From Chiloscyllium plagiosum (Eukaryota), in the NCBI RefSeq assembly GCF_004010195.1, contig NC_057752.1, positions 7,976,835-8,016,152 on the forward strand: a stretch of DNA of 39,318 bases. Direction: 5' to 3'. The position numbers were made by a program, and so were the translations under genes. The notes under the pieces are model-generated. The model made no database searches and was not told the origin of the DNA. It was given only the letters and a program-made list of their open reading frames with translations. This document shows positions 14,401 through 34,613 of this stretch, piece after piece. Numbering within the stretch: the first letter of the stretch is position 1; the number at the start of each line of letters is the position of its first letter.

Positions 14401-14613
14401 CCCAAATAATGGCACGATGCCAGAAACACTCACCTCAATTCAAGATGACTGTTACAAGTGAATTTCTTCAGGAGCGTGCTTTGCTCTGGTCACCACTGAA
14501 ATAACTCCACAGAGGCCAGTATCCCGTCACCAAGTCACCCTTTAGTTACATGTGGAGAGTCCTTGACACTGATCCAGCTCCCTCAGAGCCAGCTCTGACT
14601 GAACAGAACCCCT

Positions 14614-15419
14614 AATATTCCTGTTTTTTTTTTGCTAACCCTCACACTACCGCCTAACTGCGGTAGCGCTTACTTTTTTTTCCCCAGCACCCATGGTGCG
14701 TGTGTGTGCAGGTGTGAGACACAGTGAGAGACACAAGGTGCACAAATCTTTATTCAATTTCCACCACCAGGAAGATAGGAAAACACCCGGGTGGCCAGTG
14801 ACAAGCAGTGCCCTTCACAAAAAAGGGCAATGCGGTGTGGACACTCCTGTTTCTTTTTTATTATGCTGACACTCCTGTTCTTTTTTTTCCCACACTACCG
14901 CCTAACTGCGGTAGTGCTTATTCTTTTCCCCAGCACCCATGGTGTGTGTGTGTGTGTGTGTGTGNNNNNNNNNNNNNNNNNNNNNNNNNNNNNNAACCCC
15001 CACACTACCGCCTAACTGCGGTAGTGCTTATTTTTTCCCCAGCACCCATGGTGTGTGTGTGCAGGTGTGAGACACAGTGAGAGACACAAGTTATACAAAT
15101 CTTTATTCAAGTTCCACCACCAGGAAGATAGGAAAACACCTGAGTGGCCAGTGACAAGCACTGCCCTTCACATAAAAGGACAATGCTGTGTGGACACTCC
15201 TGTTTCTTTTTTTTAAGATTTTTCTTTCTTTTTTTTAAACTTTTTTTCTTTTTTTTGTGCAGGTGTGAGACACAGTGAAAGACACAAAGTGCACAAATCT
15301 TTATTCAATTTCCACCACCAGGAAGATAGGAAAACACCTGGGTGGCCAGTGACAAACACTGCCCTTCACATCAAAGGGCAGTGTGATCAAAAACAGTGAA
15401 GGGGAGACACTCCTGTTTC
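14614..15419 (-). mobile_element. Stack of 5'-truncated poly(A)-tailed non-LTR retrotransposon 3' ends (Tx1-like) in the Gypsy 5' LTR
   Basis: Target repeat gacactcctgtt(t) at 14840, 14868, 15193 and 15406, with a diverged copy aatattcctgttt at 14614. All but the last are followed by T-runs (poly(A) on - strand) and related ~200-bp units or a very short stub. Removing the inserts restores a continuous LTR. Confidence 0.82.
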
Positions 15420-15659
15420 TATCTGTCAGCCAGGACTCCCTGATTGTACCAGATTAACAGCCCCAGTTAGTGAACTCCTATTCTACGAGGTCCACCTGGC
15501 TGATGTCATTACAATCATTCCACCTGACAGTATGCTTTGGCAGCTTCACAAGGCCAGTGTCATGCCTCAATATTCTGAGCTACATCACCTTATACAGATG
15601 TATATCAACAGATACAAAGTGCTCATGCTACACTAATGCAGTGAAATTTAGGCACTTCT

Positions 15660-16225
15660 TATTCACTCATGGGACATGGACATCGCTTTGGCTAGCATTT
15701 GTTACCTATCGCGAGTTACTTGAGAAGTTGGTGGTCAACTGCCTTCTCCAAGTGCTGCAGTCCACGCAACAAAGGTATATCCACAATGCAGTTAGGAAGG
15801 GAATTCCAGGATTTTGTCCCAACAACACTGAAGACATGGCAATATATTTCTAAGTCATGATGATGAGTAGCTTGGAGGGGAACTTGAAGGTGGTGGTATT
15901 CCTATGTATCTACTGCTCTTTGACCTTCTTGATGGAAGTAATTTGTAAGATGCTATCTGATTATCTTTGGTGAATGTCTACACTGCATCTTTGTAGATAA
16001 TACACACTGCTGCTACTGAGCATCAGTGGTGGAGGAAGTGGATGTTTATGGATGTGGTACCAGTAAATAGGTTGCTTGTCCTGGATGGTGTCAAGCTTCT
16101 TGAGTGTTATTGGACTTGCACCAATCTAGGCAAGTGGGGAGTTTTACATCACATTCCTGACTTGTGTCTTTTAGATGGTTTACAGGTTTTGGGATGTCAG
16201 GAGGTGAGTTACTGCATGATCCCTT
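15660..16225 (-). mobile_element. LINE (L2/CR1 group) 3' fragment
   Basis: Resembles an abundant shark LINE 3' end (gagaagttggtggtc...ggagggaacttgaaggtggtggtattcc); family not determined. Confidence 0.6.
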
Positions 16226-16729
16226 CTTAAAGCATTCAGGTCAGAGTGAAAGTTGGATTAGAGAAAATCATGTGGAGCCTGGAGAAGGATGAGTGTTCTT
16301 ACTCAACAGCAGTCACAATTGCCCTTCCCAGAACTTACCCAAGGGCCACAGCCAGTCAAGCAGGTGGCCTGATGTTTTTGCTCAGGTGAGCTTCCTGCAG
16401 CTGTGTGACCACTGCCAACAGCTTGTGTCAATGCACTAATGCCCAGCAAATTTCCATCAACTCCTGGGCTTTTTTCTTCAGGTAGATTCTAACTGTGTTT
16501 GGATATAAAATCAGGCCCACATCAAAACTGAGCCCAGAGTCACTCTATTTAGCAGCCCAACCAAGAATATGTGAACTACTCCTTTTGTATTTTACTGAGA
16601 CTGAACATGAGTTCAGGACTGGATTGAATATGAGAACCCCAAGATATTGTAATCAATCATTCCACTTATTTGTTTATGCTTATTTGTTTAAACAATGTTT
16701 ATTTTTATCTTCCAATCAATCTTGCAAAG

Positions 16730-16873
16730 AACATAAAAGACCAAGCGACCTTGGATACACTCATGCTGGACTTGGATGAAAATGGTGATATGGAAATTGA
16801 TTTTCAAGAATTTGTCACTTTTGTTGCTATGATTACCTCAGCATGTCACAGCTTCTTTGCACCTCAAGAGTGA
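16730..16873 (+). CDS. S100B: S100B-like protein, last coding exon (canonical EF-hand)
   Basis: NIKDQATLDTLMLDLDENGDMEIDFQEFVTFVAMITSACHSFFAPQE*; EF loop DENGDMEIDFQE; matches the S100B C-terminus (DFQEFMAFVAMVTTACHEFF). Acceptor ...cttgcaaag|AAC is in phase 0 with the upstream exon, giving 91 aa in total. Confidence 0.92.
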   Translation, partial: NIKDQATLDTLMLDLDENGDMEIDFQEFVTFVAMITSACHSFFAPQE

Positions 16874-16961
16874 ATTTTGGAACCAAGAGCGAACATTGGA
16901 ACTAAGAGCGAACTCTGGATGTGTACATTGCTTTCTGAAATGAGTTGAAAAACCTCAACTA

Positions 16962-17332
16962 AATAAAGCGAACAACTTTTCAAGTAGAATAGAAACATAA
17001 TTATCAGATCAGAATAAGAAGTGCTAGGACGGCTAAAAATATTTTAATCCTTTACTTGCATTCTGTCTGTTTCCATGTTGTATGACGCTATGATCCTGAA
17101 AAGTCCAACTGAATATACATATATGCTTTGAAAAAAAGAGTATTCTAAATCAGATGTCAGCTGTAAATGCAGTGCTTCAGAAATGTCCACTTTATAACTC
17201 CCATTAAATGTAGTTGTCTGCTTTAAGATAACTGCACCAGTATTATTGATTGTTTGGAAAATTTGAACTCACAAAAAGAATGTTACCCAAATGGAAATTT
17301 TATTGATTGAATAAAGAGAGCAGTGAAATAAA
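16962..17332 (+). promoter_or_regulatory. Candidate polyadenylation signals of the S100 gene
   Basis: AATAAA at 16962-16967, 17310-17315 and 17327-17332, downstream of the stop at 16873. Confidence 0.5.
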
Positions 17333-18747
17333 GGGCCCTGACTGTGATATGTCAGAGCTCCCCTGGCAGCAGATAGTATTCTGAAAGCCTAACTTGTAAT
17401 ATCCTTCAGAGCATCAGTATGATAACAGAATGCTTTATTCTCTAAATATTAGAGGAAAACCCATTACTTGGCACGAGGTACCCAATCTTCTTGATTTCAT
17501 GATCATAGCAGGCTTCAGTCAATTACTACATAATAGTTTGAATACACTTTAGACATGAAGGGTAAAACAAAGAGAGTTTATGAAAACACAGGGGAAACAA
17601 TTATACTTCACATACTAGTGAGCCCTATTACCACTTGTTCCAAGTTTATCAAGTTTTGGATTTTGAGCAGTTTGACATTCATAGCAAATTTCATTCAAGT
17701 TAAAAAATTAAGAGCTAATGATATTTTATTTTAAAATTTGCATTCACTGAGCTATTAAAAAATGCACAGCCTCTGCAACAATGCACCCATTTCTACAGCA
17801 CACCAACATGCAGTTTTCAGTATCATTACAATTTATCACTATATTATTGTACATCAAATTGTCTCTGAAGGTTCAAAGGGTTTCAAAATTCTAGGGATTA
17901 TTGATTACCTGTACTGATATTATAATTAATTTGGCAGCAAAATTCACTAACCTTGCTTAGATTTAGTGATGACTATAAGTTCCAGCTTCACAAAACCAGT
18001 ATCCAAACAGTTGTCATTTTCAATTAGGTTCCTTAAGAGTCGACAACATTACCGGTACAACTTTCCAAAATTCTTACAACAGACAACGTAAGTTACTATC
18101 TCAAACAGGAATCTCAATTCTAACTTTAAAGAGTGGAGCCACCGATAGAAAAGCTCAGTGAAAACAAATGAGATGGGATTTTTTCCATTGGAGCATTGAC
18201 TACAAAAACAAAAGTGAATTTGAATTTGTAAGTGATGTTAGTCAGACCGCTGTTGTTTACAGGTTTGGACGTCCAATTATAGAAAGAAAATCAGATTAAT
18301 GGAAATAATCTAGCAAAGATTCAGTAGAATGATAACAGAAAAAAAATTAAAATTATAACACAAGGCTTAAAAAAATGCACACTTTTCATTAAAACACTAA
18401 CTGGGCATCTAATGGAGGTTTTCAAAATGATCAAAGGATTTGAGGCTGTAATTAGTGAAAGATTTTTCACTGGTTAGTGCTTGGTAACAAGAGGATATAA
18501 AGTTATTATTGGAAGATAAAATGCTTTGTGATGCAACTGTTTATTTTGAGAAGACATCAATATATTCATGCAAGCATTACTCATGTATCAGATTTTACAA
18601 CAAATACGATCCTAAAAAACTATTTCGTAACTAATAGTAACATCCCATAGCTAATTTTGCAGAAGTATATCAAGCAGCTAACAATGCTGTAGGAAGTATT
18701 TGAGTTCCAATCTATTTTTGCCTGAAGTGTAAACCATTTCAGGAATT

Positions 18748-18845
18748 TTATTCCTTTCCAATGTTCTGTTTTCGTATAACTGTCTGTTGCTGGCCTGTGC
18801 TACTCTTCAAAGACTTCCTCTCTAACAAGGGCACAATTTGTATCA
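18748..18845 (-). CDS. Probable terminal coding exon of unidentified protein
   Basis: Acceptor tttatgtttttgttcag; phase 1 gives VIQIVPLLERKSLKSSTGQQQTVIRKQNIGKE*; AATAAA on the - strand at 18540-18545. Confidence 0.6.
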
Positions 18846-19853
18846 CTGAACAAAAACATAAATATAAAAATTACAATGACAGTAATATAGACTTCCATAC
18901 ATATGCTCACATTACTTACGTAAGAAATAGAGAGTGTATAAATAACTTTGTTACAACACAGTGCCAACATCAAAGTAAGTTTGCCAGATTTGCTACGGCC
19001 AGTGAGCAAAACTACACAGTCTCCAGCTTTGTCAAATCTAGCTGCTGGTTAGCATTGAAACTGGCTATGGGAGATGTGCACATTTGGAATCAAAGGAATT
19101 AACAAAGTTCAGAAAGCTGTTAAGAATGGATAAGATTAATACTATATCTTACAAAATGGAAAGCAAGCAGTAGATTTTTAACGTTCTCATAAATATCTAT
19201 TCTCGGATACTCCACTATAATTGGAGATCAATGCTACATTTTACATACGTGAAACCGCCTACAGGCTTAAATATGATGCAAAAAAAACTGTACACAAGGC
19301 AAGGAGTGGCACAGCATGTGATTAGCTGCACTAAACCCGATGCCAATAATTGGGTATAACAACAGCACTACCCAATTCAATGGTCTTAAAAAAAATACTA
19401 GTTGATCCCCTGTGGTAAGCTCAAGGAACGACAGTCAAGATCATTTTTCAGATCAAGGAGGATTAGAGACTGGGTAGGAAAACAATTGAAGTGGCAGGAA
19501 AAAAGAAAGGAGGGCTGAGGCATTGTGGGAAAAAACTAGAGGGGAGAGAAGGAGTGAGGGCAAAGAGAGAAAGTGAAAGGGAAAGTGAGCCTGGAGGGAG
19601 GAGAGAAGACAGGTCAGAGACAAGAGAAAGGAGGGTTGAATGACAAATTTAATTGCCTAGTGATAACTGTTTCAGATTTGATATAAACATACCAATCTTT
19701 ACATTTTGGGTTTTAGCTGCATGGAAACATGAGCTTTTAGATTCAGATTTAGATCATTTCAAGTTGAATGGTGCTCTCCCCTCCAAAATGGGAGAACAAA
19801 GAGCAAGAAGGAGGTAAATGTAATAAAGTAATGCAGAAATTCTTACCTCTTAC

Positions 19854-19940
19854 CCTGAGGGGATGGCTTCCGAACACAAGTTTGGTGAGCACTAGCAGTA
19901 ACCACCTTTTCCAGTTTAGGATCAATTGGGGTTGAAGGTA
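19854..19940 (-). CDS. Exon of unidentified protein
   Basis: 87-nt phase 1-1 exon gattttgcag|TAC...CAGG|gtaaga; VPSTPIDPKLEKVVTASAHQTCVRKPSPQ. A second donor lies 7 nt further on (exon end 19847). Confidence 0.68.
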
Positions 19941-20074
19941 CTGCAAAATCTGAAATAAACAATATTCAGCTTGAAGTAAATGCTAATCAATAAACCCATG
20001 TACCTTACTTAAATGAGGGTCCTGATTGATCCAAAACAAGTATCCAACATAGAAAATAAAACATATTCATGCAA

Positions 20075-21035
20075 TTCCACCATTACCCCCTGTCTTCCTT
20101 CCCACAACAGCGACAGGGTTCCCCTTGTCCTTACCTGCCATCCTACCAGCATTCACATCCAGAAGGTCATCAACTGCCTTTCTGCCACCTCCAGCGAGAT
20201 GCCACCACCAGACACATGTATTCCCTTCCCTTCCCCAGTCCGCGGAGACTGTTCCTCCAGGACACCCTGGTCCACTCTTCCCTCCACACCTCCTCTCTCT
20301 CTCTGTCTTCCCACCCCACCACTCACCCCCCACCACACACACACACAAAACAGCCCTACAGCACCTTCCCCTGCAAACGCCCAAGGCGTAAATCTGTCCT
20401 GTCCATTTTCCTCCTCCCTCCTCAGTATCCAAGGACCCAAACATACCTTCCAGGTGAAGCAGCACTTTACCTGTACTTCTCACAATCTCATCTACTGCAT
20501 TTGCTGTTACAAAGCGGTCTCCTCTACATTGGGGAAACAAAGCGTAGACTGGATGACAGCTTTGCAGAACCCCTACTTTCTGCCTGCAAACATGACCCTG
20601 AGCTTCCAGTCGCCTGCCACCCTGTTCCCTGGCCAATACCTCTGTCTCAGGCGTGCTGCAGTGTTCTGGTGAAGCTCAGCGTAAGCTGGAAGAACAATCT
20701 CATTTTTTGCTTGGGGACCCTGCAGCCCTCTGGACTCAATATAATATTGAGTTCAATAATTTTAGGGCTTGAACTCTCCGATGTCCTAACCCCCTACCAC
20801 ACACACCAGGCCTAGTTATCACACAGTGTGCCATGGCAGACTCTCTCTTGTTAGCCACTAACAGTCTCCATTAACAGCTGTTCACCTTCCTAGCCAGATT
20901 GTTATCCACTCCTTTATCTATCCAACTGTTCTCTCTCTATGGGCTCTATCCCCACCTATTGATTACTCCTTATTCCCATCTTCTGCAGATAAACCAACAT
21001 TTTCCCAGCTACCATCAGTTCTGAGGAAGGGCCAT
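20075..21035 (+). mobile_element. Penelope-like element 3' relic (GIY-YIG endonuclease)
   Basis: DRVPLVLTCHP, IQGPKHTFQVKQHFTCTSHNLIYCI and GLLYIGETKRRL in shifting frames; ends at a truncated ctgaggaaggg hammerhead-like start. Confidence 0.88.
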
Positions 21036-21789
21036 CTTATATATCAATTAAATTTACAGACTAGGAACTTCCACAGTGGTTCTTCCAAACTCCTGCAGAC
21101 ATTTCACTGTAAGATCGGCAAAAGCATAGAGAAAAGGGCAGATACCATTTTCACAATATCCAATCATCTATGAGAATTACAATGGAAGATCAAGGAAATC
21201 CTCCCAGAAATTCTATTCCATGGAGTCTTGCATTAAAGCATTTCACAATTCATGCAACTGTTTACTTTTGAAGTGCAGTGACTGCATTATATATGCAAAT
21301 CAATAAACACATCATTATCAAATAAAAATAGAAAATGCTACAAATACTCAGCAGGACGGGTGGAACCTGGACAGAGAGAAACAGACTTAATGTTTCAGGT
21401 TATTGAGCTTTTATCAGGACTCATTGATCATTTAAGAAAGGTCACTGACCTAAAATGTTTTCGCTTGTTTTTGCTCAGCCTGACCTGCTGAGTACTACGG
21501 ACATTTTTTTGTTTTAATTTCAGATTTCCAGCATCTGCAGTTCTTTTTTATTTTAAAAGCTGTGTTAACATGATAATGCTGTACCAAGTATTTGGTTAAA
21601 CATGAGTGGAGGACAGGCACTATCATTTGAGAAAAGTACATGGTGAGGCAGTCACTATATATTGCTATATCTATATTAACATTGCAGGCAGTGTCTGGCA
21701 GTTTCATGAGCTAGAAAATGTTATGTAGTTTAGTCGAGCACATTAGTAGCAAAACAAATTAATTTGTCAGGACAAAAGTGAAAATTTAC

Positions 21790-21867
21790 CTGTATCCTGG
21801 GAATTCAGCATTTTCTCAACAGTGTTATTGGAAGGCGAGGATGGCACATCTCGGTCCCTGTTGTCAA
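21790..21867 (-). CDS. Exon of unidentified protein
   Basis: 78-nt phase 1-1 exon after an 81-nt intron; tttctttcactcttcag|TTG...CAG|gtaaat; VDNRDRDVPSSPSNNTVEKMLNSQDT. Confidence 0.72.
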
Positions 21868-21948
21868 CTGAAGAGTGAAAGAAAAATCAAGTTTTATAGA
21901 AGATCAGCTTTCTCAAGTGTAACATTTTGGAGCTTTATTTGAAATTAC

Positions 21949-22119
21949 CTGGTTCCATCACTTCAGAAACTCGGACATCAAACCACTCAAGGCCAGATCT
22001 TTCAACATCAGGCACCAGATGTAAAGGTGACTCTGGGAACAGAAGTGCAAACCGACGACTGTATGGAGAGTTATAACTAGAAGTTGTTTGATGAGGTGCT
22101 GTATGCTCCATTTCAAACA
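21949..22119 (-). CDS. Exon of unidentified protein
   Basis: 171-nt phase 1-1 exon with strong acceptor ttttgtctttttacttttccag and donor CAG|gtaatt; FEMEHTAPHQTTSSYNSPYSRRFALLFPESPLHLVPDVERSGLEWFDVRVSEVMEP. Confidence 0.75.
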
Positions 22120-23835
22120 CTGGAAAAGTAAAAAGACAAAACTATTTGTCTATAGAAACAGGAGTAAGCCACTCAGCCCCTTGAGCTTGCTCAATCTAAA
22201 TCATTTGAGATCATGTACCTCACTGCCATTTTCTCATGCTATCTCCATATTCCTGTATGTCAGTAGTATCTCAAAATTCATCAATGTGTCTTGGAAAAAA
22301 CTCAATGACTGAATTTACACTGCCCTCTGGGATACAGAATTGCAGAGATTCACTATCGTCTGAGTGAAAAAATTATTCCTCAATTGAGTCCAAAGTGGCT
22401 TACCCTTATTCTGAGTCTATGTTCTGGTTCTAGAGCATTCCCCCACCCCCACCTTGCACCTTTGTTCCTCCTACCAAAGTAGATAACTTCACACTTATCC
22501 ACATATATCCCATCTGTAATGTTCCTGCCCACGAACTCAATCTGTCAAAATCCCCATGAAGCCTCTTTCCTCTTTGCACCTCATTTTATTCCATCCTCAA
22601 ATTCGGAACTATTGCATTTTATCCTCTTAAAAGGCGATCTTATTGAAACATACATATTTCTTAGGGTACTTGACATGGTAGATGCAGAGAGGTTGTTTAT
22701 TTTGTGGGAGAGACTCGGACTGGAAGGCATAATCTCAGAATAATACATCACTTATTTAAGACAGAGAATAAGGAGGAATTTCTTCTCTCAGGTCGCAGTG
22801 AATTTGTGTAGTTGTTTTTTGTAGAGGCTGCAGAGATTAGGTCGTTAAGTATATTCAAGGCTGAGAAAAACAGATTATTTTTATCAGGAAGGGAATCATG
22901 GATTATGGAAAAAGGCAGGAAAGTGAAGTTGAGGATTACCAGATCAACAATGATCTCAATGAATGGAGAGCAGACTTGGGCTGAATGGCCTACTTCTGCG
23001 CCTAGGTCTTAGGGTCCTCACATCCAGATAGTTTCCTATCAACCTGTTCAGAGATGTTATTACAAACCTCTGGAGCAGGTGGCACTTGAACATAGGCCTG
23101 CTGACTCAGAGGTAGGGCCACTACTGCTGCACCACAAGAGCCCTAGGTCCCCACATTCAAATCATCAATATAGATTGTGAGAAATTGCGGCTCGAAGCAC
23201 AGTGCCTTGCTTTACTCCAATAATGACAGCTGTCAACCTGCGAACAGCCCATTTATTTCAACTCTCTGTTTTCACTTATAAATCCTCAACCCATGCCAGT
23301 ATATCACTTTATTTTTTTAAATATGGGATGTTGGTATTGTTGGCTGTTGGCCCATCTCAAATTGCCAGAAGGCATTAAAGAATTACCCATTTTGCTGGAG
23401 TCTGTATTCATGCTGGCCAGTTTAGGTAAGGATGGCAGATTTGCTTCCCTAAAGGACATTAGTGAACCAGATGTTTTTTTTACGACAATTGATAATGGTT
23501 TACGTAGTCATCATTAGACTTCCAATTTCAGATTTTACTGAATTCAACTTTCACCATCTGTGATGAGATTCAAACCAGGGTCACCAAAACATTACCAGGA
23601 TTTCTGTATTAATACTCCAGTGACCACCATACCATCACCTCCCCTCGGTTACACCCCTATTCTGTGTGATCTTATTTGGTTAACTAATCTGTGTAGGACT
23701 TTATGAAAAGCCTTCTGAAAATCCAAGTGCACCACATCCACTGGTTTCTCCCTTTGTCAAACATGACTTCCCTTTCATAAATAATATTGATTATATCTAA
23801 TCAGACTTTCTAACTGTCCATCCTTTATCAGTTCC

Positions 23836-23997
23836 GATTCGGAGATGCCGGTGTTGGACTGGGGTGTACAAAGTTAAAAATCACATAACACCAGGTTATA
23901 GTCAACAGGCTGATGAAGGAGCGTCGCTCCGAAAGCTAGTGTGTTTCCAATTAAACCTGTTGGACTATAACCTGGTGTTGTGTGATTTTTAACTTTA
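23836..23997. mobile_element. Penelope-type terminal repeat in fold-back arrangement (related copies at 2272-2400 and 28083-28276)
   Basis: aaagttaaaaatcacataacaccaggttatagtc is inverted as gactataacctggtgttgtgtgatttttaacttt. Confidence 0.75.
23910..23941 (+). ncRNA. Minimal hammerhead ribozyme core in a Penelope-type inverted repeat
   Basis: CUGAUGA-A-GGAGC-GUC-GCUCC-GAAAG-CUA-GUG; perfect stem II, but the 5' strand of stem I is replaced at an inversion junction. Confidence 0.6.
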
Positions 23998-25428
23998 TCA
24001 CTTCCACTATTTTCCCTACTATTGACATCAGTCTAAAATGTTATAATTCCCTGTATTCTCTCTCTCTCACTTTTAAAACAGTGGGGTTACATTTGCAACC
24101 TTACAATCAGCAGGCATTGTTCCAAAATATACAGAATTTTAAAAAAAATCATAGGAACACAGGACTCAAGAGCAAGATTAAACCATTTGGCCCCTCCAGC
24201 CTGGTCGACCATTTCATAAAATCTTGGCTGATCTGTTGTGGTCTCATTTGCACTTTACTGACTGCACCAGAAATCCACTGACCCCCTTGTCTATCAAAAA
24301 TCGCCACAGCCTTGAACAAACTTAGCCTCCACTATCTTCTGGGAAAGAGAATTCCATACACTCTGTAATAAAAAGAATTCATGTCTTCAAGGTCGATCTC
24401 TTATTGTTAAATTATGTTCCCTCATTTTACTCTCCTCCATCTTACATGTTTCAATAGGATCACTTCTTGTTTTACAAAACTCCAATGGTTACATAACCTG
24501 CTCAACCTTATTTCATAAGATAACATTGTCATAACAGAAATGAGTTGAGTGAACCTGCTCTGAATTGCTTTTTAAAAGCAATCTTTTCCTCAAAAATGGA
24601 GACCGAATTGTACACAGTATTTCAGATGTGGCTTCACCAATGCTCTATAACAGCTGCAGTAAAACTTGTCTATTTTTATATTGCTTTCTCCTGCAACAAA
24701 CACAACCTTCCAATTACCTAACAAATTATTTGCTAGACCTTTGTTCTGTTACAACCAAGGTTGGAGGAGTTCACAATATCTCTCTCATCACTATTCTACT
24801 GGTCACAACATTGTCAGTCACTGAGTAAAACAAACATATACTTCATATGAAGTTCAGAATAAAAAGATCCATCAACCAGGTGTCTTCAAAGATTCACAAA
24901 GATACAAAGCCAATTTAACACAGTGTGAAATGTGAAAGTGTAAATATTTACTCTATTAAATAGCCTAACACAGATAAAAACACACACCAGTTAAATAAAA
25001 TAAAGAAACCTTCTCTACAGAGATTAATTTTGGAGAAAGAAAAACTTCTGCCAGATACTTGTTAATTCTCAGAAAACAAGGTATGATATGTTCCTGACAA
25101 CTTTCAAACTGGTGTCACCGCACATGTCACGCCACTGGGATCCTCTCAGAAGTAAAACATTCAGAAGATGCTAAGAGGAAACCTTCCAGAGGCTATCAGG
25201 GACAATAGCTGTTTGTTTTTCAGCTTTTCATGGGATTCTCAAGAGGGCTTCTTAGAAAGGTGGCAAAGGCTGAACTGAGGGGCCACAAGGTACATCACAA
25301 CTGAATTCCAAACAATCTCAATATAATTTGAACTGCAGACATACATAAATTCAGACATGTGACTTCCATTAAGCAGTTTTCAAACAAAGTGCCCCACAGT
25401 GCCTTTCCAGTGAAAGTGAAAGAAAACT

Positions 25429-25748
25429 GGCGGCATGGTGGCTCAGTGGTTAGCACTGCTGCCTCACAGCGTCAGTAACCCAGGTTCAATTCCCGCCTTG
25501 GGTGACTGTCTGTGTGGAGTCTGCACATTCTCCCTGTGTTTGCATGGGTTTCCTCCGGGTGCTCCGGTTTTCTCCCACAGTCCAAAGATGTGTTGGTCAG
25601 GTGAACTGGCCATGGGAAATTGCCCATAGCGTTAGGTGCATTAGTCAGAGGCAAATATAGGGGAGAGGAGTGGGTCTTGGTGGATGTGGACTTGTTAGGC
25701 CGAAAGGCCTGTTTCCATACTGTAGGGAACCTAATCTAATCTAAAAAA
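25429..25748 (+). mobile_element. tRNA-derived SINE (HE1-like)
   Basis: ggcggcatggtggctcagtggttagc A box, ggttcaattcc B box, (ctaat)n tail. Confidence 0.9.
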
Positions 25749-26399
25749 TAGGAGCAAGTATCTTCTCAGACATAGATCCTCAAAACATAGTAGTAATGGA
25801 AGCACCTTCATGACAATGCTAAGCTTATGTGATTCATGTATCAGGGAATATAGAACCCAATGAATTCTGAAGATTCTCTCCATTTAAAAAGCATACTGTG
25901 TTTCTATTCCTCCTGAGAAAATGGACAAGTTCACAGGTACCCATGTTATACGACATCTGCCAATTTTTCTCCCCACCACTCACTTAAATTGTCTATCACT
26001 TTGTAGACTCTCTAGTGTCACTCATATTAATTGTAAATAATTGAGAATCTGGCACTAATCGATGAGGCACTCCAGTCATGGCAGCTTGCCAACACGAGAA
26101 AGACCCATTTATCCCTATTCTCTGCTTATGAGCCAACCAATTCTTTTTATCCTTGCAAATATATTACCCGCACATATGGTTCATCACTCTGCACGACAGT
26201 TCACATATCTTGTGCAGGGAGCAGAACCACAGATTGCCAATGCATCCACAACATCAACAAGCACGTCTTTCAACATTTTGGGACGTAAATCATCAGAGTC
26301 GCATGGTATTGTTAAGCTTCAATCCCATGAATTTATCCAGACTACTTTTTTTTTAAACAAATAATTTCTTTCAGTTCCTCATCCTCACTAACTGCATTT

Positions 26400-27107
26400 A
26401 GTTCAATGCAAGAGACCTAACAGGGAAGGCAGATGAACTCAGGGCATGGGTAGGAACATGGGACTGGGATGTCATAGCAATTACAGAGACATGGTTCAGG
26501 GATGGACAGGACTGGTAACTTAATGTTCCAGAATATAAATGCTGCAGGAAGGATAGAAAGGGAGGCAAGAGAGGAGGGGGAGTGACATTTTTGATAAGGG
26601 ATAACATCACGGCTGTACTTAGGGAGGATATTCTTGGGAATGCATCCAGGGTAGTTATTTGGATGGAACTCAGAAATAAGAATGGGATGATCACCTTATT
26701 GGGATTGTACTATGGACTCCCCAGTAGTCAGTAGGAAATTGAGATACAAATTTGAAAGGAGATCTCAGTTATCTGTAAGAATAATAGGGTGGTTATGGTA
26801 GGGGATTTTAACGTTCCAAACATGGACAGGCATTGTCACAGTTTTAAGAGTTGAAATGGAGAGGAATTTGTTAAGCGTGTACAAGAAAATTTTCTGATAC
26901 CGTATTTTTGTTGGACCAACTAGAAAAGATGGTTTCTCCTCTTGGGAAATAACGCAGGGCAAGTGACTGAGATGTCAGTGGGGGAGCACTTTGGGGCCAG
27001 CGACCATAATTCTATTAGTTTTTAAATAGTGATAGAAAAAAGGATAGATAGCATCTAAAAGTTAAAGTTCTAAATTGGAGGAAGGTCAAGTTTGATGGCA
27101 TTAGGCA
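26400..27107 (+). mobile_element. CR1 LINE ORF2 endonuclease relic
   Basis: FNARDLTGKADELRAWVGTWDWDVIAITETW...RKDRKGGKRGGGV...VGDFN motifs, with stops. Confidence 0.88.
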
Positions 27108-27607
27108 NNNNNNNNNNNNNNNNNNNNNNNNNNNNNNNNNNNNNNNNNNNNNNNNNNNNNNNNNNNNNNNNNNNNNNNNNNNNNNNNNNNNNNNNNNNNN
27201 NNNNNNNNNNNNNNNNNNNNNNNNNNNNNNNNNNNNNNNNNNNNNNNNNNNNNNNNNNNNNNNNNNNNNNNNNNNNNNNNNNNNNNNNNNNNNNNNNNNN
27301 NNNNNNNNNNNNNNNNNNNNNNNNNNNNNNNNNNNNNNNNNNNNNNNNNNNNNNNNNNNNNNNNNNNNNNNNNNNNNNNNNNNNNNNNNNNNNNNNNNNN
27401 NNNNNNNNNNNNNNNNNNNNNNNNNNNNNNNNNNNNNNNNNNNNNNNNNNNNNNNNNNNNNNNNNNNNNNNNNNNNNNNNNNNNNNNNNNNNNNNNNNNN
27501 NNNNNNNNNNNNNNNNNNNNNNNNNNNNNNNNNNNNNNNNNNNNNNNNNNNNNNNNNNNNNNNNNNNNNNNNNNNNNNNNNNNNNNNNNNNNNNNNNNNN
27601 NNNNNNN

Positions 27608-27960
27608 TTGTCCACTATCTAGGCCTTTTGGAAATGCTCAATGCATTTGGCACTTTGCGAATGCTGCTGCTCCAGTTTAGGTGCTCTTGGGCAAAAAAGC
27701 TCTGAAGATGTTATTGGGGATATTGCAGTTTTTCAGGAAGGCTGTGAGGATGTCCTTGAAGGATTTCTCTGCCCTCTTGGTAACTGCTTACCATGATGGA
27801 ACTTGCAGTAGATAGCTTATTTTGGAAGACTTGTTTCAGGTATGCAGAAAGCTTTGTTGTGATGACAAAGGGGATGTTTTGCTTTGGAGTAAATGTGAAA
27901 CAGTTCTGACTAACCCAGCACATCCGTTGGCTAATATTGAAAAGCCACATTGCAAGGAGT
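27608..27960 (-). mobile_element. RTE-clade LINE 3' relic
   Basis: GQRNPSR/SFKDILTAFLKNCNIP...NWSSSIR resembles the RTE ORF C-terminus (KRFKDxLKxxLKxCxI...WRxxI). Confidence 0.55.
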
Positions 27961-29369
27961 TCTGAGAAATGCTGTTGAACCACCCATAGCAAAAAAGACC
28001 AGGAAGCTGGATAAACTCAGTTGAAAGTGCTTAGAAATAGGAACTGCCCTCAGAGTAATGTGTGCAACAGTGTTTGTTCAATAAGTTAAAAATCACACGA
28101 CACCAGGTTATAGTCCAACAGGTTTATTTGAAAATATAAGCTTTCAGAGCGCTGCTTCTTCTTCAGATAGCTAGTGAAGCAGATACATAGGATACAGAAT
28201 TTATAAGAAAAGGATCAAAGTGTCGTGTGATTTTTAACTTTGTCCACCTTGGTCCAACATCAGCACCTTCATATCATGTTCAATAAGTGGAACAACTTTA
28301 AACTTCTGAAGTGACATCTAGAATGTTTCATTCTGTTCACGATACTAGCTGCAGACATTGACTTTTAAGCTGATAAACTCTAAGCCAAATATGAAGAGCA
28401 ACATCACATGAAATACATTTAATCACACCTGGCTGTTATACGATAGACACTGTACTTAGTTGTACAAGCTGGAGCAGACATTTGATTAATCTAGCCTTGC
28501 TTTGCATTCAGTTCTCTTCCGCCTTTGATTTTGCGCCAACAGCCATTGCACTTGTACAGTACTTATGCCAGAACCTCATTAAAGCTCTAGAATGCATGCC
28601 AAAATATTTTAATAAATAGCTTGAGCATTTTCTTGATTTTTGCACTGGGAATGTATTTTTTATCCTCTAGGAACTTTTTGTCTATTTCTCAATCGATCGC
28701 TCTCATTTTCTACCTCAGTCTCTCTATCTTTCCCCAAAACAATCGCAGACCACACCCTTCCATCCTAAATGACTCCCACAAATTACTCATACATCCTTCC
28801 CACAACCACTACTCATAGCATTGCTACCCTCATTTTCAGTCATCCATTACACACCGTTCCCATATGCCTTCTGCTTCACTTGGTGAGTGAGGATACAGAG
28901 AAGTAATCCATTATTCTGCATCCATTAGCACTCCTAAATGGGGAATTAATGTGCAACCATAGAGTCATAGAGCACAGAAACAGATGCTTCCCTTCAACTA
29001 GTCCATGCCAACCAGGTTTCCCAAACTAAACTAGTCCCACTTGCCTGCATTAGGGCTTTTGCCCGAAACGTCGATTTTACTGCTCCTCGGATGCTGCCTG
29101 ATCTGCTGTGCTCTTCCAGCACCACTAATCCAGAATCTGGTTTCCAGCATCTGCAGTCATTGTTTTTACCATAGCCCACCAAACCTTTCCTATTTATGCT
29201 CCTATTCAAATGTCTTTTAAACGTTGTGACAGTACTTGCATCTACCACTTCCTCTGGCAGTTCATTCTACATATGAACCACTCTCTGTGTGAAAAAGTTG
29301 CCCCTCAGGTCCCTTTTAAATCTTGCCCCTCACACCTTAAAAAGATGACAATTAGTTTTGAATGCCCTA

Positions 29370-29602
29370 CAAAGATAACTCCAGAGAGGCCAGTATCCCA
29401 TCACCACTTCAACCTTTATTTATGTTGGAGAGTCCTTGACACTAATCCACTTTCTCAGAACCAGCTCTCAGAATGAGCAGAACCTGCGACACTCCTGTTT
29501 ATATCTGTCGGCCAGGGCTCCCTGATTGAACTAGATTAACAGCCACAATCAGGGAACTCATATTCTAAAGTCCATCTGGCTAACCTCATTACAATCACTA
29601 CA
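29370..29602 (-). mobile_element. Solo LTR of the same Gypsy family, empty target site
   Basis: Colinear with 10161-10395; single gacactcctgttt at 29488-29500, overlapping TATAAA (- strand, 29498-29503). Confidence 0.88.
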
Positions 29603-30369
29603 TCTGCCCTAGGTTAAGTCAGAATGAGGTCAGAATAAATATCATCTGACAGCAGACAAGCTCAGTCTGTGACCACTCTAGGCAATTTAATGATGAACTA
29701 CCTTTTTTTTTATGACAAATTAATGGCAGCTTTATAACATACTTACCAGTTAAAGAAAAAAAAATAGCAAGTAGTTCCAAATAGTACTGACTGAGCTGTT
29801 GCTTTCACAAGATCTCTGCGCCTCTTGCATTCATTATCCACCTTCCTTCACCAGTTTCTATTCACAGTTCATTGCTATTCTGGTCATCAACTGGTCATCA
29901 ACAATGCAACAGCTGCCTCATCAGTCAAGATTATTTCACTCATATAATGGGAATATTCAGTCAACAACAATATACCTATTAGGTTATATAATGTTTAAAT
30001 ATTATGCAATGATTAATCAAGTGAAATGCTGCTGAGGCACTTGTCATAAAGTAACTGAAGCATTAATGTGGTAATGACTTTGGGCAATGAAAGTAACCAA
30101 AATTAATGCAAGTTACATATCTGAGGGTCCCAGATAAATTCAAGTTGCAAAGTACTCATAGATGAACTGTTTCCGATTGATGGAGTTTTAGATTTACTAT
30201 AAAGTTACAGTTTATTTTCCTGCACTCTTCAAGATTTAAAAACTGCTAACAGTAGAGCATCTGTGAAGCAGTTCCATATGCCCTTTTATTTACAGCCCAC
30301 AGTATAGCTGAGGCACAGCTTGGTGCCAAGCAAGAGTAAAGAGAGCTAGAACACAGTTCAGGGCCTCAC

Positions 30370-30464
30370 TTTCCCAGGCAGTGAATCCCTGGTTTAAAAA
30401 CACAGGTGATGAACAGAAGGTTGGACAGAGCTTTCCTGACTCCTCCAATGACACTGGCAGAGAC
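30370..30464 (-). CDS. Speculative linker exon (phase 2 to 1) that could join the ESYT exons to the unknown downstream exons
   Basis: ttattcctag|G...GAAA|gtgagg, 95 nt, open in the required frame (RSLPVSLEESGKLCPTFCSSPVFLNQGFTAWE). Splice sites are only moderate and I recognise no homology. Confidence 0.25.
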
Positions 30465-30714
30465 CTAGGAATAATTTTTAAAAATGTGCTAAGATAATTT
30501 CACTGATATACCCCAGTTTTTTTTAAAGCAGTTGTGAATCAATCGAAAAACCAAGTGTCAACATCAAAGGTCAAGGAAATACACTAGATTAATGCATCAA
30601 GCAGGAAAAGGCAAATAAATTACAAATATGACAGCTAATATGTACTTCTATATGCAAGGAGCTTTCATCTTGGAGCTTAAGCAGGAAAGTGGAATTAAAC
30701 GGTGAGTCAATTAC

Positions 30715-30788
30715 CTGATATGCAGGTCAAGTGTGACCTGCCTTTTGTCTGTACCTGTATGCACCTGTACTCCATGAATCTTCAGAGG
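30715..30788 (-). CDS. ESYT1: ESYT1-like SMP-domain exon
   Basis: 74-nt phase 0-2 exon gtctttcag|CCT...ATCAG|gtaatt encoding PLKIHGVQVHTGTDKRQVTLDLHI(S/R) (cf. PLRIIGVKVHPGQRKEQILLDLNIS). Confidence 0.87.
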
Positions 30789-31009
30789 CTGAAAGACATT
30801 CAGAGGTATGATCAGATCTCCAGCAACACAGACCTGAACAATTCGCATTTTGTAATATATTTGGAACCTATTTCAGCTTTTTTGGTCCACAGTAAACAGG
30901 CTTCTGCTTCTGACAGTAAAAGCTCCCACTGGGTCCTCACATTTAGCAAGGGAATAGCTGAAAGTCACAGATTTCTCAGTCAATTCTTCGTTGCTTCCCA
31001 CTGGAACCA

Positions 31010-31320
31010 AGAGGTACCTGGTGACTAGGGAGTCCAAAACAGTCTGAAGATACAGGGTAGGACATTTAGGACTGAAGTATGGAGAAATGTCTTCACCCAG
31101 ACCGTGGTGAACCTGTGGAATTCTCGACCACAGAAAGTGGTTAAGGCCAAAATACTGAAGGTATTCAAGAATGAGTCAGATATAGTTCTTCAGTTAAGGG
31201 ATTAAAGGGTATGGGGAGAAAGTGGGAACAAGATACAGTGTTGCTCATGAATCATACTGAATGATGGAGCAGACTGGAAGGGCTGAATGGCCGACACCTG
31301 CATCTATTTTCTATATTTCT
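31010..31320 (+). mobile_element. CR1 3' end fragment
   Basis: gagaaatgtcttcacccagaccgtggtgaacctgtggaattc...gggctgaatggcc...ttttctatatttct tail. Confidence 0.75.
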
Positions 31321-32167
31321 ACGTTAACAATTGACTGCAATGCCCTGTATTAGAGGAAGCTCTTTAGGCTGGGATGAATGCTATCCTGTAACTGCAGCTG
31401 AGATGTAATCATGTGTAAATGTCGAAAGATGACAGGGTTAGCTTCAGCTGTCATGGTCCTGACAAACTCATTGCTTAGATTCACACTCAAATGATGGCCA
31501 CCATCATAAGTTACAGAAGGGTGATCAGTACCCATGATTCATCATGATAAGATACTAGAGGGGACAGCATCCAGAGTGAGCCCTCTCTTGTGTAAATATC
31601 CCAGTATGACATTTCTTTTCAGTAGAAATGAGTCAAATGAGTTGACACATTCATCATTGACCAAATTATGCTGGTAGGTCTCTAGAAATCTACAAATTCA
31701 TTAATATTGTAGGCTGCATTCGATTGGAACCTCAGTAGATATTTGTTATTATCAATAATGCGAGGGAATTGGGAGGCAGATATATCTTGCAGGTAGTTTA
31801 GTAAGGAATATCAAACCACCAATATATCATTTCACCGTGTTGCACAGTTCAAAACATTCTCTTCACACGTGACCCAACCTTGGAAGGGGAAATGAGTTGT
31901 TGTCAGTGAGGACAAGTTTGGATTCTACAGTCAAATAGCCTACCAGCACTCATGGCCAACACTCAGATGAGAAGGGTTTGCATGGAACTGGATCAGCAAC
32001 TTCACTCGAGGATAAAATTGGGTGAAGGTGCTGCAAAAGGTTAACATTCAATTGTTCTTTAAATGTACCCGAGGGATGCACTGTATCAAACACAGAAAAA
32101 AACCCATACCAAAACATTGTGGAAATTAACGATTGTTAGAGTAACACCTGCACAGGTACAGAATTAC

Positions 32168-32302
32168 CTTCACTCCAAAGCTGACTTTTGTGAAGGCAAA
32201 GGTTTGCAGATGATTGTTTGAATTCCGAATAATGGGAGCAATGGAGTTCACCAACAGCTTCTCCAGGTACTGACCAACAAATGGCCATGCTTGCTGTAGA
32301 AC
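32168..32302 (-). CDS. ESYT1: ESYT1-like SMP-domain exon
   Basis: 135-nt phase 0-0 exon ttggtag|GTT...AAG|gtaatt encoding VLQQAWPFVGQYLEKLLVNSIAPIIRNSNNHLQTFAFTKVSFGVK (cf. IVAQVWPFLGQYMEKLLAETVAPAVRGSNPHLQTFTFTRVELGEK). Confidence 0.9.
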
Positions 32303-33119
32303 CTACCAATAAAGAATCTCCGTTAGCTTGTTACATTTGGGATCTAACAATTACACCTCGCCCCAGATGTCATAATAGTTTTGTCAGTTATTGTTGCTTT
32401 CTTTAAGCTTATTCTGTTCATTCTTCCTAACTGACAGGACAGTCAAAAATATCTTCTTTTAGAACTTTAGATAGCTCCATAAGTAGTTGTTCGGAAACTT
32501 GCAAGACCAGTCCCATAGAAACCTGCCCTCCAAATTTAGTTTACTCCCTAAATGGAAGGAAGACACCTGGTCATCTCCTTTCTAAGTAGACATTAAATAC
32601 TTGAACTATGAGCAATTTCAGATAGAATCCTGAACAAATTAATCAGGCTTAACCCAAGTTTACTAGTCAGGAATTAAAGCCCATATGTTAAACTAAGTCA
32701 CCTGGCAGGAACTGAGCAGGCCAGTCTTATCCTATATTTTAGCACTGGCAGACTACCTTTATTTTGATGTTATTTGGAGAATATAGAAGTTTGTAATCAG
32801 TGTAGCATTCAATATTATTCATTTACACACTTACTATTCAATAAAGGGTCTGCTATTTTTAGCCTGAATGAAGTCTGATACACTACTTATTCTCCTGTGT
32901 ACTGAAGTGAAGAAAGCAATTTCAGCTCACATTGGATACCCAAAGAGCAATGCTACATAGCGAGTGGGTAAAAATATACTCCAGTTAGTAGAGGGAGGGG
33001 GTTTTGGCACTAAGCCTGAAGAAAATATCTTGTGGGAAACAGCACAAACCAAATGCTGCCTTTCCCTACTGTGGATATGGTTGTCTGATGCACACTGGCA
33101 TTCACTATCAAGGAACAAG

Positions 33120-33515
33120 GTTTAAAACATAGAGTACTTACAGCACATAAAGAAGCCATTTGGCCCATCAAGTTATTTCTCACCCTTCAAAAGAGCATCC
33201 CACCCAGACCCAGACCCAGCCCACAACCCTATCCCCATAACACCACATTTAGCAGGACCAATCCATATAACCTGCATATCTCTGGACACTACGGACAATT
33301 TAGCATGGCCAATCCACCTCGCTTGCACATCCCTGGACTCTGCGGGACAATTTAGTATGCCCAATCCACCCTAACCTGCACATCCTTGAACTGTGGGATG
33401 AAACCGGAGCACCCAGCAGCAACTCACGCAGACATTGGGTGAATGTGCAAACTCCACACAATCACTCAAGGATGGAACTGAACCTGGGTTCCACCACTGA
33501 GTCACCATGCTGCCC
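33120..33515 (-). mobile_element. tRNA-derived SINE with internal ~45-bp triplication
   Basis: Head ...gagtcaccatgctgccc; three copies of atttagca/gtatgg(c)caatcca...gcacatc between about 33245 and 33390. Confidence 0.8.
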
Positions 33516-33593
33516 TAAAATATATATAATTGGATAGATATAAGAACTCTAGTTTAAAAATTACTTTTCAGGAAATATTACAGCATTTATAAG

Positions 33594-34613
33594 TGTAGTG
33601 ATTGGACCAAGGTTGGCCAGGTGGATCTCACTGAACATGAGTTCCCTGATTGGAAGCCCTGGTTGACAGATAGAAACAGGAGTGTTAGGTGCTGAGGGTG
33701 GTTAGTGAAGCCGGAAGGTGGGTAGGCCGTCCTGACCGCTGTCACCCCGGGCGGGTACCGGGGCGGGCTGTCCTATAGGTGGTCGAAAGGTGTGTCAGGG
33801 CAGACCGAGAACTGGAAGGGGCATGGGGTGGACTGAGAACCAGAAGGTGGGTGGGGGGGGGGGGNNNNNNNNNNNNNNNNNNNNNNNNNNNNAAGGGCAG
33901 TGTTTGTCACTGGCCACCCGGGTGTTTGCCTATTGTGAGTATATGTGCAAGGACTCTCCTTGAAGGGGACAAGAAAAAAATAAAATAAAATAAACAGGAG
34001 TGTCGCATGCGGTGTCGACCAACACCCTGGAGTTGTTCAGGAAGAAAAAACAAAATAAACAGGAGTATCGCTGTCACCCCGGGCGGGTACCGGGGCAGGC
34101 TGTCCTAGAGGTGGTCGAAAGGTGTGTCAGGGCAGACCGAGAACTGGAAGGGGCATGGGGTGGACCGAGAACCGGAAGGTGGGTAGGGACGGGCTGCCTT
34201 AGAGCGCTCGGAAGGTGGGAGGGGCGGGGGCTTGCTGGGTCTGTATTGTCTGCACTTTTGTATGTAACAGTACTGTCTAATGTACAACTGTCACTGCTGT
34301 TTGTGAAACTGGGATTTGAGGTTTGTCCTCATGTCCCTGTAAACTGTCAGAATGGTAGGGTTTGGGGCCTGGCTTTGCTGCTCCTCTCCCTCGTAAAATT
34401 GCTGTCTTTTGTATGCAGCAGTTTGTTGTAGACTGTTTTTGTAATTTGTTTAATAAAATTTTATAAACAGGAAAAAAAAAGAAACAGGAGTGTCAGAGAG
34501 TCTCCTCACACAAGGTGCTGGCTCTGATCTAGCTGGTCAGAGTCCATGTACTATGCACATGCAAATAAAGGGTGACTTGGTGATGGGATACTACTCTCTG
34601 TGCAGTTATTTCA
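33594..34613 (+). mobile_element. Solo LTR of the same family, interrupted by stacked non-LTR insertions
   Basis: Begins TGTAGTGATT and ends GTTATTTCA; LTR halves 33594-33686 and 34481-34613 are colinear with the other LTR copies. Confidence 0.87.
33673..34494 (+). mobile_element. Tandem Tx1-like non-LTR retrotransposon fragments with target-site duplications
   Basis: AAACAGGAGTRTY copies at 33674, 33992, 34057 and 34482; the last three are each preceded by an A-rich tail. 34070-34480 is a GT-rich 3'UTR with AATAAA plus poly(A). 34005-34041 encodes HAVSTNTLELFR, which I recall as a Tx1 ORF2 C-terminal motif. Confidence 0.8.

Follow-up and report, generated by a model that had tools for sequence, protein, structure and literature searches.

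Tandem insertion of a Tx1L-clade LINE and a non-coding partner at the TATA box of a Gypsy LTR family in the shark Chiloscyllium plagiosum

Gypsy LTRs and their insert stacks

The window analyzed here is a 39,318-nt stretch of the Chiloscyllium plagiosum genome (assembly GCF_004010195.1, NC_057752.1, positions 7,976,835 to 8,016,152, forward strand). It holds all four LTR copies described in the initial annotation, although two of them are not independent, being the 3' and 5' LTRs of one old element on the minus strand (10161-15522). Paired LTRs with TG...CA ends, PBS-like and PPT-like stretches, decayed gag/pol pieces and a flanking 5-bp repeat with one mismatch identify this element as Gypsy-type, as first proposed. 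Its 3' LTR (10161-10395), with a PPT-like purine run just upstream, is empty and carries the target site at 10280-10292 with two mismatches. In the decayed internal region (10396-14496), broken by stops and frame changes, a gag-like piece (14110-14439) is followed by putative RT, RNase H and integrase remnants, whose order we presume from motifs recognizable in the broken frames; a Pfam search with two of the pieces named no family and gave one sub-threshold, unrelated match. The 5' LTR (14497-15522), whose left end has drifted, is split at its TATA box by at least five inserts, and its two halves share 72.5% and 84.3% identity with the 3' LTR. Its CCAAT-box position (15443-15447, one mismatch) precedes the first site copy by 29 nt; many other LTR copies have an unmutated box at that distance. 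The remaining two copies are solo LTRs: an empty one on the minus strand (29370-29602) with an intact site at 29488-29500, and one on the plus strand (33594-34613) split by four inserts, whose left half lacks the stretch bearing the forward CCAAT box. Alignment and site search agree with the earlier description of both empty LTRs, one with a mutated and one with an intact site; their mean column identity is 79%, flanks included.

At two mismatches or fewer, the 13-mer site occurs 13 times in the window against 1.6 expected, and none of 100 shuffles gave as many as 13. The minus-strand stack opens with a site copy (15406-15418) overlapping the TATA position of the LTR, followed by a Tx1 3' UTR fragment that ends early in a long A-rich tail (15206-15405, matching positions 5156-5281 of the long copy L125). 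After the second site copy (15193-15205) come a 5'-truncated Tx1 3' UTR whose tail lies within an assembly gap (14995-15192; L125 5175-5356) and a short Tx1 3' end with a terminal hairpin and A-tail (14881-14964; L125 5296-5352). The third and fourth copies (14868-14880 and 14840-14852) enclose a 15-nt A-rich micro-insert of no identified source (14853-14867). A further 5'-truncated Tx1 3' UTR (14627-14839; L125 5175-5371) ends in a 10-bp terminal hairpin and A-tail, with a predicted fold of -24.1 kcal/mol, a value given without shuffle control; the fifth copy (14614-14626, three mismatches) then leads into the right half of the LTR.

In the plus-strand stack, the first site copy (33674-33686) precedes a 5'-truncated copy of a second family, partner B, with GC-rich repeats and a 3' end lost in a gap (33687-33864, matching 1445-1607 of the B copy at L032). 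A Tx1 3' UTR piece joined to a Tx1 5' head piece and closed by an A-tail follows (33893-33991); the same join extends the 5' end in a Tx1 subfamily. The second copy (33992-34004) is followed by a piece from the end of the Tx1 ORF2 that ends early in an A-tail (34005-34056; L125 5048-5088), the third (34057-34069) by a 5'-truncated partner B with an AATAAA, seven read-through bases of the site and an A-tail (34070-34481), and the fourth (34482-34494) by the right half of the LTR.

Each stack contains one assembly gap that hides a junction (14965-14994 and 33865-33892). Every visible insert is closed by an A-rich tail and oriented as the LTR, so that the earlier count of five and four site copies separated by co-directional, A-tailed inserts is borne out. 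Two other parts of that description have to be revised. The footprints of target-primed reverse transcription are present, but 5' truncation is not general: three pieces that end early in an A-tail and the micro-insert are exceptions. The inserts, taken at first for a single family, belong to two unrelated ones, a Tx1 LINE and the non-coding partner B.

The LINE, its partner and their LTR-derived heads

The copy at locus L125 unites the end of a putative ORF1, the APE and RT domains and the 3' UTR found in the stacks. Its ORF2 frame of 708 amino acids matches RVT_1 above the Pfam cut-off and Exo_endo_phos just under it; Pfam names nothing in the frame upstream, which may be a Tx1-like ORF1. 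The closest named protein is Tx1L of Xenopus laevis (YTX2_XENLA, P0007), with 45% identity over APE and RT. A quick ORF2 tree built on 37 rows, with 36 taken from the 120 matches listed and none a mammalian L1, places the shark protein in a six-row clade with Tx1L and turtle proteins (SH-aLRT 95). The APE-RT part gave protein matches; the C-terminal part of ORF2, searched against longer proteins, gave none. Copies of the element show A-tails, 5' truncation and short target duplications. By domain alignment and tree, the LINE-type inserts of the stacks belong to a Tx1L-clade LINE, and the Tx1 affinity assigned at first sight stands.

Partner B is about 1.9-2.1 kb long, non-coding and unrelated to the LINE. 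The two families have no common 3' end, so the dependence of B on the Tx1L-clade LINE, which probably moves it too, is indicated solely by the common target site. We rejected a SINE origin with a tRNA, 5S or 7SL head and a polymerase III promoter: the head of B resembles the R region of the LTR and no tRNA was called in L031 or L032. Rfam returned no match in the window, which holds no B head. The reading of an additional G at the 5' ends of B (L194, L198, L033) as cap-derived was also set aside, as the duplications are unconfirmed and the four L033 heads represent one structure. When six B 3' flanks were inspected for an extended duplication, two fell in gaps, one inside B and three were readable; the single clean LTR pair among the latter has a donor-derived head.

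LTR sequence forms the head of many full-length copies. The order site, LTR R, 5' UTR is found in 11 of 14 Tx1 heads and also in that of L200, which starts from the left half of an LTR; 8 of 18 B heads directly adjoin such a left half. Another form of extension, by the element's own ORF sequence rather than an LTR R head, is present in 13 of 20 Tx1 5' regions. Heads of tandem B copies within a locus are 98% identical and ungapped (nine pairs), against 92% between loci, with gaps in 32 of 36 pairs, whereas the bodies show no such difference (83 versus 85%). At two loci (L185 with L219; L199) donor-derived heads begin upstream of the predicted start site, and therefore not all RNAs begin at the Inr. 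In a 3'-type single-cell RNA run (X16, about 2% read), reads cover the Tx1 3' UTR, where they have poly-T ends, and the 3' end of B, with no pile-up of starts. A second run (X17) gave no reads, and a further set (X1) consists of contigs whose type is uncertain; these data have no bearing on the promoter.

Site preference and promoter position

In a genome-wide sample, 9 of 39 LTRs are filled exactly at the site. With up to three mismatches allowed, the site follows 22 of 29 3' ends in Tx1 and 19 of 29 in B (control, 7%), and an LTR half in the same orientation is found at 14 of 29 Tx1 and 13 of 29 B loci. Both families thus lie above the 20% of flanks beyond which Kojima (2015, PMC4494074) calls a family target-specific. 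LTR occupancy and insert flanks, two of the checks named in the initial annotation, both uphold the preference.

Tx1 elements often change targets, and the change is usually credited to the endonuclease. The annotation had suggested a new sequence-specific APE. The enzyme would itself read the 13-14 bp site with some flank, off-targets being star activity. Such specificity would agree with the reported specificity of the closest named relative, Tx1L, for Tx1D, with the main role given to the endonuclease in target choice of the Tx1 group (PMC4494074), with a beta-hairpin specificity loop three residues shorter than that of Tx1L (a second, frameshifted copy agrees) and with a few off-target sites that start like the target (L127, L039, L163). 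However, off-target copies make up about a quarter of all, and their 22 sites share only T|AAA, with no consensus past the first four bases. Mismatches to the 13-mer are no fewer in filled LTRs than in empty ones (2.4 versus 2.1), strongly altered sites (L013, L025, L059, L157) are still filled and stacked, and the CCAAT spacing described below is not predicted. We consider direct reading of the site unlikely, and infer an APE domain whose preference for T|AAA is weak and L1-like.

Insertion breaks the LTR within its TATA box, about 29 nt downstream of the CCAAT box, and 12-15 nt are duplicated. TATAAA is present, with at most one mismatch, in 27 of 39 LTRs; of 30 empty LTRs, 15 have an Inr-like word and 16 have A(A/T)TAAA, as raw counts without a computed background. 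A first test for CCAAT, with a threshold of 20% set beforehand, missed it: none of the 11 junctions of long copies was positive, and among 8 fresh sites whose duplication is visible 1 was. In the discovery set, 6 of 14 off-target sites have CCAAT at the LTR spacing. Pattern searches gave 13/21, 3/4 and 5/6, against 2/14, 2/4 and 6/14 for control words (pooled, 21/31 versus 10/32, p = 0.004, with rows sorted manually and unblinded); taken by itself, the third replicate has p = 0.12. The distance from the junction peaks at 40-42 nt (17 of 21 rows), and the reverse word scores 0 of 5. The control word CACTA mostly falls in the element's own hairpin, leaving 3 of 67 rows usable. By a rough estimate, CCAAT lies at this distance in only about one in ten off-target copies. 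The landing spot seems to be set partly by promoter layout, some 29 bases after CCAAT, and not by a 13-letter code.

The CCAAT signal may also merely reflect the AT-rich TATA boxes that abundant repeats have in their promoters, if nicks occur at any T|AAA and succeed where the RNA ends (site and LTR R) pair with the target. Homology of this kind would fit the 3' ends that often run on into the site and beyond (34466-34472 in the window; L028, L176), the locus-specific heads, the negative long-copy test and the origin of 7 or 8 of the 21 CCAAT-spaced rows in one repeat with a TATA box. Yet most inserts are 5'-truncated with a plain A-tail ahead of the site, so that little homology is available to them; several CCAAT-spaced off-target sites have no TATA word, and the excess persists, weakly, without that repeat, an abundant second family (pooled p = 0.04-0.055), for which an exact-junction pattern retrieved the known locus only. 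Homology as the sole guide therefore appears improbable to us.

Amplification of one filled LTR by Gypsy, or growth of the stacks by unequal crossing-over, would account for the locus-specific heads common to tandem B copies, but is very hard to reconcile with nine filled LTRs that begin at differing points of two different elements, a filled 5' LTR whose 3' partner is empty, B bodies no more alike within a locus than between loci, inserts 90-95% alike beside paired LTRs at 72-84%, and truncation points and duplications that differ from locus to locus.

A proposed promoter-guided route and its known relatives

The most likely explanation is a weakly specific nuclease guided to CCAAT/TATA promoters, which the element then borrows. 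The stacks would be built through target-primed reverse transcription by the Tx1L-clade LINE; as 12-15 nt are duplicated, TATA and site are restored on the left side, and each further insert lands ahead of the previous one. The strong site bias may have two further sources. One would be the setting of the promoter, with CCAAT at a constant distance and acting through a bound host factor (for example, NF-Y) or open promoter chromatin. The other would be sequence identity between RNA ends and target, since many RNAs carry site and LTR R at the 5' end and read into the site at the 3' end. Our comparisons suggest that the two together do much of the targeting work. Landing in sense would place the element under the polymerase II promoter of the LTR, which would explain the LTR-derived heads and close a self-reinforcing loop. 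Taken as a whole, this account, from Tx1L-clade reverse transcription and a weak APE to promoter capture, strikes us as somewhat more probable than its negation.

More tentatively, we may hypothesize that a CCAAT-bound factor, with NF-Y as a candidate, leads this vertebrate LINE to polymerase II core promoters, where the LINE would cleave the TATA position some 29 nt beyond CCAAT and then be transcribed from the captured promoter; this is possible rather than probable. The Gypsy LTR would then be merely the most abundant promoter with that geometry, and insertions at host CCAAT/TATA promoters are predicted. If CCAAT tethering fails, the case is still a well-documented instance, in a cartilaginous fish, of transposons that insert into transposons, a habit already known, here combined with promoter capture. 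The general question of how APE-type LINEs become site-specific becomes directly testable.

The habit itself, which the annotation had thought undescribed, is already known from crocodilians, where Tx1-8_Crp and Tx1-4_AMi insert preferentially into LTR retrotransposons (PMC4494074); our literature search found no report of Tx1 insertion into LTRs for sharks. New here are the position of the cut, inside the TATA box of the LTR and 29 nt beyond CCAAT, the LTR R on many full-length heads of both families and the apparent off-target enrichment of CCAAT at that spacing. The crocodilian systems, which also include Tx1-Mar with SINEU, resemble ours in their preference for another transposon, LTR retrotransposons in two of them, in tandem insertion, in a non-autonomous partner with a common target and in proposed transcription from the flanking target (PMC4494074). 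They differ in that the LTR-targeting families form a Keno-linked group, whereas the shark LINE groups with Tx1L (in a tree without Keno or crocodilian rows), and in the snRNA head of their partner, against the LTR-derived head of the shark partner of about 2 kb; for the crocodilian LTR targets we came across no site and no TATA or CCAAT position in PMC4494074. Tx1L also targets a transposon, but a DNA transposon, Tx1D (PMC4494074).

R2 and 5'-transducing SVA are likewise transcribed from flanking host sequence, which they carry at the 5' end, and the co-transcribed target may strengthen targeting (as cited in PMC4494074). R2 differs in its restriction-like nuclease and rDNA target, and SVA in not being targeted. 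TRE5-A of Dictyostelium, on which the tethering hypothesis is modelled, is like the shark LINE an APE-type non-LTR element. It inserts at a fixed distance and orientation relative to a factor site, as the shark LINE may do; its targets are polymerase III genes, an interaction of ORF1 with TFIIIB is reported, and its preference is strong and its orientation opposite (PMC5911963). In the shark, by analogy, tethering would occur at a polymerase II CCAAT/TATA promoter, in sense orientation and with partial effect. We found no CCAAT-tethered non-LTR targeting of polymerase II promoters in the literature; if true, the CCAAT-factor reading would provide the polymerase II counterpart of TRE5-A and Ty3 tethering.

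Insert stacks and their two families

The window contains stacks of inserts at one repeated site of a short Gypsy LTR family, as the initial annotation had described. Five copies of the 13-bp site lie on the minus strand within 14497-15522 and four on the plus strand within 33594-34613; window-wide, 13 matches at two or fewer mismatches are found against 1.6 expected. All visible inserts share the orientation of the LTR and terminate in an A-rich tail, and each stack includes one assembly gap. Two further LTR copies (10161-10395 and 29370-29602) are empty. The copy at 10161-10395 is the 3' LTR, and that at 14497-15522 the 5' LTR, of a single Gypsy-type element that has decayed and lies on the minus strand; accompanying them are stretches resembling a PBS and a PPT, a 5-bp repeat in the flanks with one mismatch, and fragmented gag/pol remnants, presumed from their motifs, with no family-level Pfam match for the two pieces scanned. 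Half by half, this LTR pair is 72.5% and 84.3% identical, against 90-95% identity of the inserts to other genomic copies; the stack is thus younger than the Gypsy insertion and no ordinary part of the LTR.

The inserts, first taken for a single family, belong to two, both present in the window. Family A inserts are the 3' end of a LINE: at one locus (L125), the ORF1 end, a 708-aa APE-RT frame and the same 3' UTR lie within one copy. Its protein is 45% identical to Xenopus Tx1L, and a quick tree of 37 rows places it in one group with Tx1L and proteins from turtles at an SH-aLRT of 95, in agreement with the proposed Tx1-clade placement. Family B measures about 1.9-2.1 kb, with GC-rich internal repeats and a terminal AATAAA; one copy (L031) has no sense-strand frame of at least 120 aa, another (L032) has one short AT-rich frame at its 3' side. 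No 3' end is common to A and B.

Other arrangements were observed around these elements. Several Tx1 subfamilies (L105-L124, L201, L208, L211) have longer 5' ends, to which segments of the element's own ORF1, ORF2 end or 3' UTR have been added with neither a tail nor the site at the join; positions 33893-33991 of the window represent one such join that was retrotransposed by itself. A Tx1 3' end lies antisense within partner B at L031 6620-6850, and control-word rows of our pattern searches hold two further insertions in antisense, both at a single different position of B. Shortly upstream of a full-length B without site, L186 1-60 is a stretch presumably resembling tRNA-Val (ARAGORN made no tRNA call on it), possibly a template switch. 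A second Tx1-type element, in decayed form, occupies L104 2680-4750; it is flanked on each side by a short stretch that we presume to resemble the U2 snRNA start, that is, Keno-like; a family A copy lies just downstream, within another decayed element. The window also holds decayed frames (20013-20815 and 36590-36951), presumably resembling GIY-YIG/Penelope endonuclease ends, and near-perfect tandem duplications in two copies (181 bp at 9360-9722 and 172 bp at 38724-39074), possibly assembly artefacts.

Preference for the LTR site

Initial searches yielded 2235 candidate B ends, 1178 candidate A ends and 1340 candidate LTR left halves, and we scored 40 per query. Of 39 LTR left halves, nine carry an insert precisely at the site (95% interval 11-39%), six of them Tx1 and three B or B-like, each insert with a different start point. 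For 29 loci of each family, the window's own excluded, the site follows the 3' end at three or fewer mismatches in 22 (A) and 19 (B) cases (control 7%), and at two or fewer in 13 and 17 (control 0.9%). The genome-wide preference expected from the window is found, and it is strong but incomplete: in hand-scoring, 14 of the 58 loci were clearly off-target, each insertion being flanked by a 12-15 bp duplication of its own. Of the long copies traced on both sides, nine are on-site or in arrays and four off-target with duplication, the remainder being gaps, deletions or interrupted.

The initial annotation suggested that the endonuclease could be a new sequence-specific APE. We consider classical endonuclease specificity, with the APE itself reading the 13-14 bp site, unlikely. 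Across 22 off-target sites, for which we set the duplication start at an A, the nick is preceded by T in 16; A occupies the first, second and third positions after the nick in 17, 16 and 15, and no consensus extends past those four bases. Furthermore, filled LTRs average 2.4 mismatches to the 13-mer (n=9) versus 2.1 in empty ones (n=30), although filled copies may gain a mismatch from a short duplication. Sequence reading at insertion is thus weak. Compared with Tx1L, the endonuclease hairpin loop lacks three residues; PMC1950540 shows that this loop influences target choice without being a simple sequence reader.

Promoter position of the cut and element heads

The nick falls inside the LTR TATA box (of 39 LTRs, 15 have TATAAA exactly and 27 have it at no more than one mismatch), and a CCAAT box starts 29 nt upstream. 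As raw counts, without a background rate, 15 of 30 empty LTRs have an Inr-like word about 30 nt downstream and 16 a poly(A) signal farther on. Two inverted CCAAT boxes were also seen within the LTR (window 33640-33660; three further pattern-search rows), the stretch between them being gone from several filled copies.

Many full-length copies have LTR-derived heads. Among 14 Tx1 heads, selected from 40 matches for reaching the head start, 11 show site, LTR R region and 5' UTR in this order and three a chimeric extension; at L200, LTR left half, TATA, R and 5' UTR are contiguous. With a different query, 13 of 20 Tx1 5' regions were extended from the element's own ORFs, which counts against the generality of LTR-R heads. 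Eighteen B heads, drawn from 40 matches once those with a previously recognised site were set aside, begin directly after the LTR left half (eight), after the tail of an earlier insert (eight), or about 30 nt past the expected TATA position with no site (two). At two loci the head is donor-derived and begins upstream of the predicted start, so that read-through RNAs also act as templates. The RNA reads examined (3'-type single-cell, about 2% of the run) show no start sites.

Tandem B heads inside one locus are 98% identical and ungapped (nine pairs, six from a single locus), versus 92% between loci, with gaps in 32 of 36 pairs; B bodies lack such a difference (83% within, 85% between). This locus specificity points to homology-assisted 5' joining. 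A feedback by homology only seems to us as improbable an account of targeting as classical endonuclease specificity, and hitchhiking very improbable.

CCAAT spacing, targeting models and known systems

In a post hoc discovery set, CCAAT started 26-29 nt before the nick at 6 of 14 off-target sites (background 0.6%). The first test set beforehand missed its 20% threshold: the spacing was absent from all 11 unrelated flanks on the left of long copies (nine others comprised one LTR, four gaps, three internal deletions and one contig end) and present at one of eight fresh sites with duplication. Pattern searches then looked for element motifs preceded by CCAAT at 30-64 nt, and the distance from CCAAT to the 5' junction was compared with a preset interval of 38-46 nt, rows being sorted by hand, unblinded. 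In the first (54 rows), 13 of 21 usable rows fell within the interval, one ambiguous row being scored out, after removal of 11 LTRs of the family, 10 variant LTRs whose TATA region contains CCAAT, six own or array rows, one known locus, one duplicate and four rows unable to reach the interval. The second (13 rows, less two LTR, three variant, one internal and three at known loci) gave 3 of 4, and the third (20 rows, less six LTR or variant, two LTR-like, three array and three unreachable) 5 of 6. Control words handled identically gave 2/14, 2/4 and 6/14, and the reverse word 0/5. Pooled, CCAAT exceeds control words (21/31 vs 10/32, p=0.004; p=0.04-0.055 without the 7-8 rows of one second repeat; p=0.12 for the third replicate by itself), and the distance is 40-42 nt in 17 of the 21 in-interval rows. 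As a rough estimate, a tenth of off-target copies have CCAAT at such spacing, in better agreement with 1/8 than with 6/14.

Three left flanks (L014, L063, L176), mutually related and unrelated to the LTR, belong to a second abundant repeat, presumably of Penelope-type origin, which contains CCAAT boxes in tandem as well as a TATA box and is repeatedly targeted at the same spacing. The L040 left flank, which matches window 23366-23557, and row G000:C12:14939513 of the first pattern search are insertions into apparent coding repeats that we take to be CR1-type, with the CCAAT word at the right spacing; should the word prove specific to these copies, they may serve as natural experiments.

The insertion footprints are those of target-primed reverse transcription (TPRT), and the cut lies at the TATA position. 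We lean slightly towards a combined promoter-context model, in which elements would be transcribed from the LTR promoter, B would be mobilised by the family A LINE, inserts would be joined with the help of homology, and a CCAAT-bound factor or open promoter chromatin might guide the machinery to its target. That the LINE is tethered to CCAAT/TATA polymerase II promoters and then uses them itself is a more tentative proposal, which we rather doubt.

Tx1 targeting of an LTR in the window is real. In the literature searched, with most subscription journals, Repbase and Dfam outside reach, we found neither a shark case of it nor a CCAAT- or NF-Y-guided LINE; PMC3747384 and PMC13000458, in their available parts, serve as background only. 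The transposon-on-transposon habit has a precedent: Kojima 2015 (PMC4494074) reports crocodilian Tx1 families favouring LTR retrotransposons, along with tandem insertion, non-autonomous partners with a common target and transcription that may start in the flanking target, so that the basic habit was already known. For insertion of a non-LTR element at a fixed distance from a factor site, TRE5-A at polymerase III genes provides a precedent in the available part of PMC5911963.
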